DNA of 44,937 bases from a phage, in assembly GCA_025700225.1 (NCBI GenBank), contig GCA_025700225.1_4339.1; one strand, 5' to 3'. The notes beneath the pieces are model-generated. The model did no database searches, was not told the DNA's origin, and saw nothing but the letters and a program-made list of their open reading frames with translations. Within the stretch, counting starts at the first letter, position 1. Every line of letters begins with the position of its first letter. This document shows, one piece after another, positions 17,998 through 43,135 of the stretch. A program made the translations under genes and the position numbers.

Positions 17998-19753
17998 ACA
18001 CTAGTTTTGTAACAGTAAAAGCGAATGCGCTTGATATACCTGCGCCGCCGACAGTGTTCCTCAGTGTAACCCTGAAGCTGGTTGTGCTGGTGTATATAAC
18101 ATCACAACTCACGGAATCAGGGGCGCTTACAGGGGTTACTTGCACTACGTATCCGTTGGAGGATGCCGCTAAGGCATGGGAAAATGTTACATCGTAAACT
18201 CCGGTTGCTACCTGGTTAACTGAGGACACACCAGGGGCGATGTTGATGGTTCCGTTGGCATTTATCTTACCAGAGCGAGGAATGCTGCCCGCAGATACAG
18301 AAGTAGTCTTACTGGTTTGTTCCATGAACGTACAACCAATATCAATTACTTCGCAATTAGCGCCGGTAACCCAGTACGGCCTTGCGCTACTTGGCACATA
18401 AGAGCCTACACTCTGGAATGTTGTTCCGTTGAGGATTACGGTCACCTTGCCGCCGCCTGAACTTGTGATATTTAAGTTCTGTATGGTGTACATGGAACTG
18501 CTGACACGGTGGAAATTACCACCGTTAATGACTACGGTGACAGGGCGGGTTCCTGTATTATCAATTACAAGGTCCGCTCCACCCTTATTTGCTTCGAAAT
18601 ATGGATTGTTCAGCACGAGTGCACCGGAACCATTTAAGCCATTCACCGCGATGTTCATTCCACCAGTGCTTAAATTATCTTGGGTACCATTACCCTCGCA
18701 GGTTAACCCTGTAATGGTGTCACCTGCACCCCAGCTGTCACCTAAAATGCCCCAATCTGAATTATCGCTTGCAGTAATGCGGTTAAAACTAACTGCGTTT
18801 AACTCTGAACCAGTACTACTAGCAAGCACTCGGAGGCCGATGCGGTTAGATTGCAGATACACATTATCCAAATCTGAGGTCAATACATCCTCCAGACGAA
18901 GACCTTCACCGTTAGTGTGCCCGTACGATACGAAGTCATGTAGGCGCGTATACGCCTTGCCTTTAATATGCATGCCGTAAGAAGTGCTGTTTCCTTTAAG
19001 GGTGAAGCCGCCAACGGAGTCGTAAGCATGTACTCGTTGAGATGTGAATGTGCTGTCCCCGAGCATCTTCATGTTAAAATCGGCAACCTGACAGTTGAAG
19101 ATTGTCTCTGCCATATTATCGCCGGAGTAGTGCGCACGAACTCCAGGAGACCCAATAAAGGCAGCGTCAAAGTTGCCATAATCAAGGACGAGGGGGGTAT
19201 CTACGTCATAAACCCCATGCTTTATTTTCAGAGCCCCGCCTAAAGGCCAATTAGTTAAGGGGTCCTGGTATATAGAGGAATCAATGCGACCTATCACATC
19301 GGACACCGATTCGGTATTACTGTATGCCACGAGGTCAGCGCCTTTACCTTCGTCGGGGTTCGCGAGGTCAGCCCTCAAATCAGGGTCCGTTTGTGGCTTC
19401 CAGTTAGCGTTACCAACCGGGTTAAACGACGCAGGGACAACAACCGGCAGCGTACCAGCGTATGAGTACCACGTCTGGCTAACCGGGTCGTAAACCACTT
19501 TGTCGCGGTCATTAACTGTTAACGTACCGCCGGTGGAAAAGTCCCATGACACCGGAGAAAAACCTGCGTCGCGTAACACCGCAGGAAGCGTCTTCTGTGT
19601 CTGCCCTGTAACGGCATTGGTTGCGTAATCAATATCGGCACCGCCAGCGACACCCCCGGATTTGCCGGTGATGACCTCAGCTTCAAAAATCTGATGTTTC
19701 TTGGCGGTCTGTAAATCCGCCAGACTTAAAACGTCACCGCATCCGCTTGACAT
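17996..19753 (-). CDS. tail fibre / tailspike-like receptor-binding protein
   Basis: 585 aa; last gene of the tail operon; Gly/Asn/Thr-rich repetitive central region of the kind seen in beta-helical phage fibres. Confidence 0.65.
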   Translation of the reverse strand: MSSGCGDVLSLADLQTAKKHQIFEAEVITGKSGGVAGGADIDYATNAVTGQTQKTLPAVLRDAGFSPVSWDFSTGGTLTVNDRDKVVYDPVSQTWYSYAGTLPVVVPASFNPVGNANWKPQTDPDLRADLANPDEGKGADLVAYSNTESVSDVIGRIDSSIYQDPLTNWPLGGALKIKHGVYDVDTPLVLDYGNFDAAFIGSPGVRAHYSGDNMAETIFNCQVADFNMKMLGDSTFTSQRVHAYDSVGGFTLKGNSTSYGMHIKGKAYTRLHDFVSYGHTNGEGLRLEDVLTSDLDNVYLQSNRIGLRVLASSTGSELNAVSFNRITASDNSDWGILGDSWGAGDTITGLTCEGNGTQDNLSTGGMNIAVNGLNGSGALVLNNPYFEANKGGADLVIDNTGTRPVTVVINGGNFHRVSSSMYTIQNLNITSSGGGKVTVILNGTTFQSVGSYVPSSARPYWVTGANCEVIDIGCTFMEQTSKTTSVSAGSIPRSGKINANGTINIAPGVSSVNQVATGVYDVTFSHALAASSNGYVVQVTPVSAPDSVSCDVIYTSTTSFRVTLRNTVGGAGISSAFAFTVTKLV

Positions 19754-36975: not shown

Positions 36976-37207
36976 GGGTGATTACCTCAGATTCAGTCTT
37001 GCCTTTGGAATCGGCGGCGGCGGCCTTAGATTCATCCTGCTGCTGCCGTTGTGTTTTCTTCGCTAACTCAGCCTGTGCTTTCCGCTGTTGCTGCGAAACG
37101 AGATTCGCCCGACCTTCGTTCCAGCCGCTGCGATACTGGTAGATTCCGTAGCCGTATGTCAGGAGGATGAAACATGCTCCTGCTACGACAGTTGCGTTAA
37201 GATTCAT
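36821..37207 (-). CDS. Rz: i-spanin (Rz-like)
   Basis: 128 aa; N-terminal TM VVAGACFILLTYGYGIY, then Gln/Ala/Lys-rich periplasmic coiled-coil; RBS AAAGGAGAAAC. Confidence 0.65.
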   Translation of the reverse strand: MNLNATVVAGACFILLTYGYGIYQYRSGWNEGRANLVSQQQRKAQAELAKKTQRQQQDESKAAAADSKGKTESEVITREVVKYIKTPGRSVCTFDDARVLLKSRAVANANSIPGYDDDAASVQAGLTK

Positions 37208-37229
37208 GTTTCTCCTTTCTCGATAAGTA

Positions 37230-37255
37230 AAGCCCCGCCCTAAAGCGGGGCGCTA
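37230..37255 (-). terminator. GC hairpin upstream of Rz (attenuator/terminator on minus strand)
   Basis: stem gccccgc/gcggggc; on the minus strand followed by TTTACTTATC and then the Rz RBS. Confidence 0.45.
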
Positions 37256-37310
37256 GTCCTTATCATTTAAACATAGAAACGGCGTAATCTTAAGATAATT
37301 CTCAGACAAG

Positions 37311-37455
37311 TAGACTGGCGGCCTTCCGGATACGTCAGCGGAACTACACTCAGTGCTTACGCACCGCTCCGTTCCCTGCCGCAACGCGGTCGCTTGCGAT
37401 AACTCACAAGCTCAGGTGGAGCTTAGCATATTTTTAGTGAAAAGTCAACTATTAG
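37311..37455. repeat. conserved ~140-bp non-coding element, copy B
   Basis: about 85% identical to 4893-5035, same orientation; stem positions covary. Confidence 0.6.
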
Positions 37456-37504
37456 AATAGTTTTATTCCATTTTTACAATTGAGTGTAATAATTGGAATA
37501 GTCG

Positions 37505-37556
37505 GTATCTGTGCTTGCGTACACCAATATAATAGGGTACTATTCACTTATCGAAA
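37505..37556. promoter_or_regulatory. promoter-operator motif copy (near-identical to 4676-4721, inverted)
   Basis: TATAAT at 37527-37532 facing the plus gene at 37578; TAATAG-N5-CTATTC palindrome. Confidence 0.55.
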
Positions 37557-37577
37557 CGAGAGATAAGGAACTTAAAT

Positions 37578-37790
37578 ATGAAAGAATTAATTATCGCGAT
37601 ATTGCTGACATTGGCAGTTTCACTGGTAATTGCTGCTGGTATACGTAGCTTAGATAAACACGGGTGTGAGAACTACGGAGATATCACAGGCCGAGAGGTA
37701 ATGTATAGTTACACAACTTGTTATGTAAAAACTGATAGGGGGTTTATCCCTCGTGAAGAACTTAATTTTAGAGCAGCGACACATGAATAA
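37578..37790 (+). CDS. small membrane-anchored protein (moron)
   Basis: 70 aa; N-terminal TM/signal MKELIIAILLTLAVSLVIAAG; RBS AAGGAA; lone plus-strand gene with own promoter and terminator inside the leftward virion operon. Confidence 0.6.
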   Translation: MKELIIAILLTLAVSLVIAAGIRSLDKHGCENYGDITGREVMYSYTTCYVKTDRGFIPREELNFRAATHE

Positions 37791-37792
37791 AA

Positions 37793-37820
37793 CTAAGGCC
37801 CCATAACGGGGCCTTTTATC
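37793..37820. terminator. bidirectional intrinsic terminator
   Basis: stem aaggcccc/ggggcctt, loop ataac; followed by TTTTATCATT. Confidence 0.65.
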
Positions 37821-38280: not shown

Positions 38281-39323
38281 TATTCCCCTTTCAGATAATC
38301 AGCAACACGTTTATCGAGTTCCGCCATCTGCTTAAGCGTCAGCGGATTCCCGAAACCATCTACAGATATTACGCGAAACTCTTCCGGCGATATACCGCTG
38401 TTGCGGAAAATCTTACCGCGCACCGGGCCTAACGCCTGGTCCTGAAACCACGCTGGTTGTTGCTTAAGGAACTCATAGTAAGTGGTGTCCGCGCTTACTT
38501 GCGTACCGCCATCAGCGCCCCTAGCCGCACGTTTTGCGCCAGCGTCGAGAAAATCGAACTCTGAACTGATTACGGGTGCTGTGGTACTTCGGCAGTTCGG
38601 ATGGGCTGGGGGCATAGGGCCTTTACCAATTTCCCATGTCATGCCATCTCTGGCCCTGCATATTGTGCTGGTACGGCTGTCCAGCGTAGACACCCACTCG
38701 TATTTCTCAATGATGTCGCTGTTCTGCCTGTAAGTCTCGTTGCGGGCTTCGTTAGATATGTGCGAAAGCGCGGTGCGGATTACGGTAGCGGCATTGCGTT
38801 CGGAGATGTCCGCCAGTCCGCCAGAGCCGACCACACTTTTAACAATCTGCCGTGTTGTCTGGCCCTGTACAAAGCCCATCTTAACGCCAGTTATGAGGCG
38901 TGATACCTCCGTTTCACCCCAGCCTTCCATCAGTTTAGTGAAATCAACTGGCTTGTCGTTTAGCGCCAGTGGTTGAAACACGGCGGCGGACCACACCTGT
39001 TCAGCGGTCGGGGTAACAAATTCCGCATTAACGTTAGCCGTGAGTGTCTTCACATTCCACTCAGCCTCATACGCTGCAAGCTCCTTAAGGTCTTCTGTCA
39101 ACTTCGTTTGCCAGCCACCCGTAAGCCCTGTCAGCGCTTCTTCCAGGTCGCGTAACAGTTTATTCAGCCGCGCGGTGCTTCTCCCGTCGTCACCGAACAA
39201 TAGCACCTGCCGTTTGATTTCGTCGCGCATCTCCTGAATGAAAGGCGCAAGGTCTTTCACTTCACCAGATGCGTTGCGTTGCAGCCAAATCTGGTGGCTG
39301 ATTAAGGATGTTAGTAAGCTCAT
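38280..39323 (-). CDS. head morphogenesis protein (Mu F / SPP1 gp7 family)
   Basis: 347 aa; conserved STLDSRTSTICRARDG...HPNCRST signature of the minor head protein family; follows portal. Confidence 0.85.
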   Translation of the reverse strand: MSLLTSLISHQIWLQRNASGEVKDLAPFIQEMRDEIKRQVLLFGDDGRSTARLNKLLRDLEEALTGLTGGWQTKLTEDLKELAAYEAEWNVKTLTANVNAEFVTPTAEQVWSAAVFQPLALNDKPVDFTKLMEGWGETEVSRLITGVKMGFVQGQTTRQIVKSVVGSGGLADISERNAATVIRTALSHISNEARNETYRQNSDIIEKYEWVSTLDSRTSTICRARDGMTWEIGKGPMPPAHPNCRSTTAPVISSEFDFLDAGAKRAARGADGGTQVSADTTYYEFLKQQPAWFQDQALGPVRGKIFRNSGISPEEFRVISVDGFGNPLTLKQMAELDKRVADYLKGE

Positions 39324-39391
39324 AAATAACCCTGTGGCGCTAAAGTTAATAGCATACTATAAGAAAGCCCCTTTCGGGGCTACAGGTGAAC

Positions 39392-42136: not shown

Positions 42137-42678
42137 TCCTCTACCTCACCCATATTCGTTGTTACGATTTTACCTACAGGCTCCGCGACACTGAAAATAA
42201 TCTCAGTCGGTGCTGTTTCTTCGGTGGATTCAACTGGTTTCTCTTTGCTAAGGCCCAGCTTAGCCGCCGCAAATGTAGCGGAGATGCCCGCGGCGCCTGT
42301 CTCGGTGAAATACGCCTCTTCCAGTGCCTGTGCGGTTTCATAGGCTTCGGCAAACGCCGGAATCTCGCGCAGCCACAGCTTAATAATCGGGATAGTGACG
42401 CCGATATGTAAGGCGAAGCGGGCCAGTGACGGGGGTTTATCCTGAATAAGCGGTCGTTCATCACCCTTGGACGTAGGTACGAGTTCCCATGAGTTGCGGT
42501 CAAAGAACCGGATTAACTCATCGCAATAATCCGGGTCCCACAATGCAGCAGAATTACGGGAAGACTGGTAAAGGCTCTGTTTGCCGCGCGGTCGTTTACG
42601 GCGACGATTGGCGCTAACCGCCTCTTCATGTGCAGCTTGCACCACCTCAGGTGATGGTTGCTTAAGTGTAAGTTTCAT
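42133..42678 (-). CDS. terS: terminase small subunit (putative)
   Basis: about 181 aa from ATG 42678 with GGGGG RBS (track extends to 42717); basic N-terminal region; position directly upstream of terL. Confidence 0.55.
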   Translation of the reverse strand: MKLTLKQPSPEVVQAAHEEAVSANRRRKRPRGKQSLYQSSRNSAALWDPDYCDELIRFFDRNSWELVPTSKGDERPLIQDKPPSLARFALHIGVTIPIIKLWLREIPAFAEAYETAQALEEAYFTETGAAGISATFAAAKLGLSKEKPVESTEETAPTEIIFSVAEPVGKIVTTNMGEVEE

Positions 42679-42769
42679 ATAACCCCCTGACATATGCGTC
42701 TGACCATCAGAGCGCATCAGACGCGCCCTACGCGTCTAAAGGGATTATATAAGGGGATTGGGCGGGATG

Positions 42770-42796
42770 TACAGAAAAGCCCTCCGTAGAGGGCTT
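42770..42796 (-). terminator. intrinsic terminator after the leftward early gene cluster
   Basis: stem agccctc/gagggct; on the minus strand followed by TTTTCT; separates small early genes from the terminase operon. Confidence 0.6.
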
Positions 42797-42801
42797 GATG
42801 G

Positions 42802-43023
42802 TCAGACCGAGGTCCAGCTTATACTATTCAGGACATGCGGGCTTTTAGTTCTCTTTACCAGGCCTCTTTTCTCCATATCCTTAAGCTTACGAAGAACAGA
42901 TGCTGTGTCTAAATTGCGGTATTTATAAGATAATATGTTGCGGATATAGTAAGTTGGTTCCCCGTTGCGTATCTTACCCACACAATCAAGGACATCCGCA
43001 TCCAATATTAGTGAAATTTTCAT
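42802..43023 (-). CDS. hypothetical protein, possible winged-helix DNA-binding
   Basis: 73 aa; LDTASVLRKLKDMEKRGLVKR resembles a recognition helix plus wing. Confidence 0.45.
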   Translation of the reverse strand: MKISLILDADVLDCVGKIRNGEPTYYIRNILSYKYRNLDTASVLRKLKDMEKRGLVKRTKSPHVLNSISWTSV

Positions 43024-43135
43024 CTCTTACTCTCCAATCAGTTGTATAGGCCGTGTCGCGGTGCTCTTTTACCATCTCCGCCATAATGGTCGTTAGCTAC
43101 GGGAATGGCCCAGGTGTTAGGGATGATTAGTAGTC

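Follow-up and report, generated by a model that had tools for sequence, protein, structure and literature searches.

The pac and cosB sites of phages SPP1, P22, P1 and lambda lie in or beside the small terminase gene (terS), and the sites of SPP1 (pacL and pacR), P22 (pac), P1 (pac) and lambda (the cosB R sites) are unique, terS-proximal, duplex-DNA motifs with short repeats in both orientations. The boxB hairpin of the lambda nut sites has a 5-bp stem and a GNRA-like pentaloop, and the loop is recognised by a protein. The 5′ untranslated regions of ompA (hairpins hp1 and hp2) and papA have a hairpin at or near the 5′ end, a second hairpin, and a single-stranded segment with the ribosome binding site, and in these stabilisers almost any stem-loop works. 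The enzymes RppH and RNase E require single-stranded 5′ ends (PMC3997798 and its references 92–95). The put RNA of phage HK022, a processive antiterminator that is factor-independent, is about 70–73 nt long; its stems are long and bulged, and it forms a triplex in the minor groove (PMC9378689).

The leader described here precedes terS in a Kagunavirus-like virulent siphophage (subfamily Guernseyvirinae), represented by a stretch of 44,937 nucleotides that we refer to as the window. Among siphophages of E. coli and Salmonella, both therapeutic and model, the Guernseyvirinae and Dhillonvirus are some of the most frequently isolated; to our knowledge nothing has been described about control of their packaging and late genes, and we know of no late-gene regulator. 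Literature searches for these phages found no description of the leader and no mapped pac site or transcription starts, and the only Kagunavirus transcriptome paper reports no start sites. The predicted structure is conserved with compensating changes in at least seven groups of enterobacterial siphophages. Structured 5′ leaders that act in cis are a known kind of element; as a motif this one is new, the way it is conserved is unusual, and it is spread widely, with Guernseyvirinae, Dhillonvirus and Eiauvirus among its carriers.

A 1-kb query around the leader matches 170 phage records (Escherichia, Salmonella, Kagunavirus) and none of the complete E. coli genomes. The packaging operon is transcribed on the minus strand in the order terS (181 aa, 42678–42133), terL (42136–40886; Pfam Terminase_6N and 6C), the portal gene (40873–39392) and a head-morphogenesis gene. 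The ATG at 42678 reported as the terS start in the earlier note agrees with PHROG 3064 (‘terminase’, E = 2e-72), which aligns from residue 1 (M42678). The N-terminal part of TerS is strongly basic (ANRRRKRPRGK at residues ~25–40, window ~42560–42605), and a PRRK- or KRK-type patch is retained by all clades despite 23–30% overall identity (alignment A4), suggesting that it could be a nucleic-acid-binding arm.

Upstream of terS is a block of ~90 bp containing a terminator, a promoter and the leader, all on the minus strand, which would offer a natural insulated expression unit for engineering. The terminator (42796–42771; inverted repeat I7) is a hairpin, AAGCCCTC-TACG-GAGGGCTT, followed by a T run, and its RNA reads AAGCCCUC-UACG-GAGGGCUU then UUCUGU, with an 8-bp stem, a UACG loop and a UUUUCUGU tail. 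A simple terminator scanner did not list 42796–42771; the site nonetheless has the GC-rich hairpin and U run of an intrinsic terminator together with compensatory change, as CCCTC/GAGGG is replaced by CCCGC/GCGGG in Jerseyvirus and Cornellvirus and there are G.U variants besides. It would close the upstream (early, nin-like) transcription unit. Homology with most relatives begins exactly at the terminator, and the sequences upstream of it are unrelated, with different small genes there.

A promoter scan identified a −10 hexamer, TATAAT (42749–42744), and, 18 nt upstream of it, a −35 hexamer, TGTACA (42773–42768), together matching at 10 of 12 positions; both this TATAAT and the terminator hairpin with its T run are where the earlier note had placed them. 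TGTACA is invariant in Kagunavirus and Jerseyvirus, in which the 18-nt spacer drifts in sequence and is constant in length, and the other clades have TTGCCT or TTGGTG at a spacing of 17 nt. Five of the six −10 bases (T1, A2, A4, A5 and T6; TAnAAT) are invariant among 22 distinct sequences from seven clades, and Dhillonvirus has an extended −10 (TGtTATAAT). A sigma-70 promoter is thus predicted, with hexamers spaced within the expected 16–18 nt and conserved despite spacer drift, and by the usual spacing rule transcription would start at the A at 42737, 7 nt past the −10. The terS Shine-Dalgarno sequence (GGGGG, 42687–42683) ends 4 nt before the ATG, and a purine-rich block occupies this position in all clades.

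The minimum-free-energy fold of the sense strand consists of two adjacent hairpins (−25.8 kcal/mol, z = −2.68), and only 3 of 200 shuffled sequences fold as stably. Hairpin A (42738–42718) has the sequence UAGACGCGU-AGG-GCGCGUCUG, with nine base pairs including two terminal U.G pairs and an AGG triloop. Hairpin B (42717–42694) directly adjoins it and reads AUGCG(C)UCUGA-UGG-UCAGACGCAU, with ten base pairs, a bulged C at 42712, and a UGG triloop closed by an A-U pair. The whole element is 45–47 nt long; neither hairpin includes the Shine-Dalgarno sequence, which together with the AUG is mostly unpaired in the folds. A covariance model has one hit in the 44.9 kb (E about 1e-15; the runner-up has E about 0.6), so that the leader is single-copy. 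An E-value search of 42400–43100 against Rfam places no family on 42694–42738, and the four sub-threshold hits in that interval (13–19 bits, against gathering scores of 35–70) fall on the terminator (three, 42769–42843) and at 43001–43032 (one). The case that the leader is a real feature rests on the fold energy and, above all, on conservation with covariation in relatives.

This arrangement upstream of terS is common to Kagunavirus, Jerseyvirus, Cornellvirus, Dhillonvirus, Eiauvirus, and unclassified Serratia and Klebsiella phages. All 50 IMG/VR loci collected by TerS retain the terminator, TGTACA, the 18-nt spacer, TAnAAT, hairpins A and B, the Shine-Dalgarno sequence and the ATG. Remoter phages were reached by sensitive blastn with the leader and tblastn with TerS, and include Cornellvirus-like members (SenTO17, STM-ZS, W5, GRNsp27, TS6 and St162), the Dhillonvirus phages Envy and WF5505, Serratia phage Otaku, Klebsiella phage 37P2 and Edwardsiella phage eiAU; the TerS proteins of all of these have only 23–30% identity to that of the window. 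A covariance model (R1) built from Kagunavirus, Jerseyvirus and Cornellvirus only has as its top sense-strand hit the site upstream of terS in Otaku, 37P2, eiAU and Dhillonvirus. A second model (R2) found the element in 20 further loci (L186–L210), including the new clades L208 and L209, and had zero hits in unrelated contigs when run on 638 kb of viral DNA. An IMG/VR scan anchored on GGCTTTTCTGTACA returned mostly unrelated contigs, which served as a negative control; for a TerS profile scan no stretch of TerS was conserved enough, and a single-protein scan for Otaku gave no match.

The stems turn over completely among these phages. Hairpin A has a wholly different stem in 37P2 (GUGGCCC-UGG-GGGCCAC), Otaku, eiAU (GGGGCGGGCC-AGG-GGUCCGCCUC), Dhillonvirus (with a variant AGGUGGU-UGG-GCCACCU) and L208, and hairpin B of Envy is AUG(U)UGCCGA-UGG-UCGGCGCAU. 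Between Kagunavirus and Jerseyvirus a C-G pair of hairpin B is exchanged for A-U (UCUGA/UCAGA to UAUGA/UCAUA). Insertions and deletions in Cornellvirus and Dhillonvirus leave hairpin B intact, and a 2-nt insertion in Cornellvirus shifts its bulge from the 5′ arm to the 3′ arm. Despite this turnover the loops are kept across seven to eight clades, NGG in hairpin A and UGG closed by A-U in hairpin B, and AUGGU is invariant in 22 distinct sequences.

When all clades were aligned with MAFFT, hairpin A fell out of register in the divergent genera, and model-guided alignments were used instead. In alignment A2 (15 sequences) 98.9% of cells pair, compared with 21–56% when the partners are slid. In the all-clade alignment A3, which like A5 was fitted to the model structure and is thereby biased toward pairing, although the registers are unambiguous by eye, 97.8% of cells pair and 12 of 19 pairs have two-sided changes (43 cells); none of 500 shuffles reaches these values, and slid partners give 21–59%. 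The two helices behave alike, with 97.9% of cells pairing in helix 1 (hairpin A; six of nine pairs change on both sides) and 97.7% in helix 2 (hairpin B; six of ten). Among paired cells that are not Watson-Crick, G.U outnumbers A.C by 49 to 3, or by 17 to 3 when counted per column and clade event (binomial p = 0.003). As G.U is tolerated only in folded RNA of the sense strand, and A.C corresponds to G.U on the opposite strand, this excess indicates a folded sense-strand RNA. Together these substitution patterns show secondary structure of the sense strand to be under selection. The structure is fixed in place after a conserved promoter and terminator, is non-coding, and occurs once per genome.

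We favour, with moderate confidence, the reading that the packaging-operon mRNA begins with a structured leader that acts in cis, protecting the 5′ end and binding some additional factor. Host sigma-70 RNA polymerase would initiate about 7 nt past TATAAT, and the first ~45 nt of the transcript would fold into the directly adjacent stem-loops A and B, after which a brief unpaired region would carry the Shine-Dalgarno sequence and the start codon of terS. Hairpin A would leave almost no unpaired 5′ nucleotides and so shield the mRNA from RppH and 5′-end-dependent RNase E, much like the 5′ stem-loops of ompA and papA. When the start is placed 6–8 nt past the −10, hairpin A begins 0–3 nt from the predicted 5′ end in eight of nine clades; in eiAU it lies only 3 nt past the −10, such that part of the 5′ arm may be untranscribed, and in a fold of Envy from the predicted start, hairpin A is missing from the minimum-free-energy structure.

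The arrangement resembles the ompA and papA leaders in having a hairpin at or within a few nucleotides of the predicted 5′ end, a second hairpin, and a single-stranded ribosome binding segment, and there is no sequence relationship to either. Unlike those stabilisers, which depend on pairing and leave loop and stem sequence free, the leader keeps its AGG and UGG triloops, the AUGGU and the bulge while its stems turn over, and this loop conservation implies that more than generic pairing is under selection. Stabilisation alone does not explain survival of the loops and bulge, and we infer a specific trans-acting partner, for which the NGG triloops and the bulge would be the contacts, tuning the stability or translation of the packaging genes. 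Two loops kept while every stem pair is replaced provide a small, easily mutated handle for finding that partner. Several candidate roles were rejected: the hairpin loops lack the GGA of CsrA sites and the stems are too short for an RNase III site, and pairing of loop B (UGAUGGU, 42703–42709) with ACCAUCA in terS codons 7–9 (42652–42658; I8) is absent in Jerseyvirus. The CCAUC core of these codons is retained in Kagunavirus, and a conserved long-range pairing with loop B is unlikely on this comparison.

The earlier note had drawn attention to the DNA repeats of this region, describing three GCGTCT(G)A copies in direct and inverted orientation that formed two nested palindromes, and proposing a late-promoter regulatory site or part of a pac/cos region. 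The quoted sequence is present at 42691–42741 (plus strand), as are the three copies, with GCGTCTGA at 42696–42703 (plus) and 42717–42724 (minus) and GCGTCT at 42732–42737 (plus), giving inverted pairs I5 (8 nt, 13 nt apart) and I10 (7 nt, 5 nt apart). Rather than being nested, the two palindromes have the middle copy in common and are mutually exclusive. There is also a fourth, imperfect copy that had been overlooked, GCGCTCTGA (42716–42708, minus), and it is this copy, rather than copy 2, that pairs with TCAGACGC in the minimum-free-energy and conserved folds. The GCGTCTGA/TCAGACGC pairing is itself not conserved: it is broken in half of the sequences, among others by the C-G to A-U exchange in hairpin B between Kagunavirus and Jerseyvirus, and on A3 only 78.4% of its cells pair (shuffled mean 77.5%) with no two-sided changes. 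The copies are confined to Kagunavirus and Jerseyvirus and are not the conserved unit. The number of GCGTCT (30 observed, 27 expected) and GCGTCTGA (3 observed, 1.6 expected) occurrences genome-wide is at chance level, and simulated sequences of the window size contain on average 2.7 cases of a 6-mer occurring three times in both orientations within 42 bp, compared with two in the window. Because such trios arise at this rate, the repeat cluster alone is not significant and was rejected as a feature. The only other such cluster in the window is ACGGTG (plus, minus, plus; 14-nt spacing) at 18506–18539. What survives of the suggested late-promoter regulatory site is its position in the terminase leader, directly downstream of the conserved TATAAT and terminator, which makes regulation of late or packaging expression a reasonable role, with the relevant unit being RNA hairpins and not DNA repeats.

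Two alternatives treat the region as a binding site in duplex DNA. In one, a TerS oligomer would bind the GCGTCT(G)A repeats or palindromes and so determine where, close by, the first headful cut is made; the genome has a single such site and it adjoins terS as known pac and cosB sites do, headful packaging has been inferred for the group from TerL phylogeny and PhageTerm (PMC10783031, PMC5582158), and the Terminase_6N and 6C matches of TerL are in keeping with it. However, where those sites are sequence-conserved duplex motifs, the leader is selected for pairing within one strand; its stems covary and differ completely between clades, the repeats are limited to two genera, and the distance is fixed to the −10 element and not to terS. 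One-sided changes are nearly all to G.U in the sense strand, which would be meaningless mismatches in duplex DNA, and hairpin B is an asymmetric palindrome with a bulge, which with the G.U bias fits a folded transcript and not a duplex site for TerS or a symmetric protein. Jerseyvirus K47 yields no submolar pac fragment, and PhageTerm found no termini in Kagunavirus fBC-Eco01. GenBank record starts, considered as a pac proxy, lie 10, 39 and 51 nt upstream of the ATG, and were rejected; as these positions coincide with the ribosome binding site or start codon, they reflect annotation convention and not physical ends. We conclude that the pac/cos proposal lacks positive evidence and is quite improbable, that the leader more probably acts as a control element in RNA than as a packaging site in DNA, and that inverted repeats beside terS should not be read as pac without mapping of the ends. 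The same strand asymmetry and covariation count against an operator at which a dimeric phage or host regulator would bind the palindrome overlapping +1 and repress or time the terS promoter. The palindromes do occupy +1 to +45 relative to a near-consensus promoter, genes for small HTH-type proteins lie upstream, and a weakly MarR-like gene is directly upstream in the window; but the half-sites differ completely between clades while the hairpin loops, which would be the dyad centres, are conserved, and the MarR-like gene, found in just the window, EC3-1 and NBSal006, cannot be the general partner. We view this explanation as very improbable.

Two further alternatives concern the transcript itself. 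The sequence from hairpin B onward could be coding, either as an N-terminal extension of TerS from an ATG or GTG at 42717 or as a conserved leader peptide, and indeed no in-frame stop codon separates 42717 from terS in Kagunavirus and Jerseyvirus, the alternation of ATG and GTG preserves a start codon, and the bulged base of hairpin B is a third codon position (CGC, CGA, CGT). The substitutions are of the wrong kind, however, as the 12 codons past 42717 have no synonymous and six non-synonymous differences between the two genera, compared with 36 synonymous and seven non-synonymous in the first 99 terS codons (Fisher p = 1.2e-4). Moreover, a 2-nt insertion in Cornellvirus turns the upstream ATG into a 9-codon ORF ending in TGA, the upstream ATG of Dhillonvirus is out of frame, the 5′ base of hairpin B lacks an AUG in Otaku and eiAU, and the invariant GAUGGU falls in differing frames among clades. 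With the PHROG terminase profile also beginning at M42678, we take this stretch to be non-coding and terS to start at 42678, and a coding role to be barely credible. An upstream ORF or translational coupling, starting from either of two AUGs, one in loop B and the other at the hairpin's 5′ base, was likewise rejected as a conserved peptide, as frames and stops are inconsistent among clades. Many GenBank records, including that of EC3-1 (locus L211, 686–1270), begin terS at the upstream ATG or GTG and are 13 codons too long, a widespread annotation error that can now be corrected. The last alternative is processive antitermination: the two-hairpin RNA, while still being made, would engage the polymerase that transcribes it, unaided in the manner of HK022 put, whose read-through depends on the beta′ zinc-binding domain, or assisted by a small phage protein as nut is by N, and the polymerase would then pass the terminator-like hairpins of the packaging and morphogenesis operon. 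The leader is single-copy at the operon head, its two stem-loops follow directly on the promoter much as putL is at +3 of the PL transcript (PMC9378689), and conservation of loops and bulge with stems turning over suggests a specific macromolecular contact. There are terminator-like hairpins downstream on the minus strand (39381–39366, 37815–37795, 37251–37232 and 34860–34839), and the interval from 39366 to the next gene start at 39323 has no promoter-like site. The likeness to put is one of architecture only, namely a cis-acting pair of stem-loops heading a long, terminator-containing operon, and put is found in early operons of a lambdoid phage whereas the leader precedes the packaging genes of virulent siphophages. 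The leader is much smaller than put (45–47 nt against ~73 nt), its stems being 9 and 10 bp long with one bulge where put has long stems and a triplex, and neither similarity to put nor an Rfam match was detected. Like nut it is a promoter-proximal leader RNA with small hairpins, and the 5′ arm of hairpin B contains a boxA-like core (CGCUCU), but this is found only in Kagunavirus among the clades, the loops are triloops unlike boxB, and no N-like gene was identified. The run of U residues after the first downstream hairpin is interrupted (UUUCUUAU), making factor-free partial read-through plausible and suited to the required protein ratios, and there are weak promoter-like sites past the terminators at 37.8 kb. 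Antitermination is on balance unlikely. We would likewise assign only a small chance to the broader notion of a compact processive-antitermination or polymerase- or ribosome-loading RNA, whether a miniature functional counterpart of put or one that, like nut, is recognised by a small basic phage protein, for which the arginine-rich N-terminus of TerS, acting in autoregulation, is a possibility; were it so, the leader would mark transcripts from a packaging promoter common to several virulent siphophage genera (Guernseyvirinae, Dhillonvirus, Eiauvirus).

The window differs from most of its relatives in having a 73-aa gene (42802–43023, minus strand) inserted between the stop codon of a conserved upstream gene and the terminator. 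Its hits to MarR-type families are weak and fall short of the Pfam cut-off; it matches PHROG 9799, a family of unknown function, and in phage EC3-1 it is labelled ‘ferric uptake regulation protein’. Of the 170 related records, EC3-1 and NBSal006 alone share it with the window, and on this distribution it looks like a moron-like insertion. The sequence GTCTGACCATCA (42796–42807), which spans the stop codon of this gene, forms a perfect 12-nt inverted repeat with TGATGGTCAGAC (42698–42709) in hairpin B. The repeat could open hairpin B on read-through transcripts, and may be due to chance. As a fifth copy it was considered as a part of the conserved element and rejected, because it is absent in all relatives, including EC3-1 with the same inserted gene.

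Further along the operon, the hairpin at 39366–39381 (minus strand; AGCCCC-GAAA-GGGGCU then UUCUUAU) is located between the portal and head-morphogenesis genes, and is probably an attenuator that sets the ratio of these two proteins. Within the structural module there is a segment of ~600 nt (37207–37819) without an ORF of 100 aa or more, which contains two strong terminator-like hairpins (37815–37795, bidirectional, and 37251–37232) and four weak promoter-like sites on the minus strand, and may be a boundary between transcription units.
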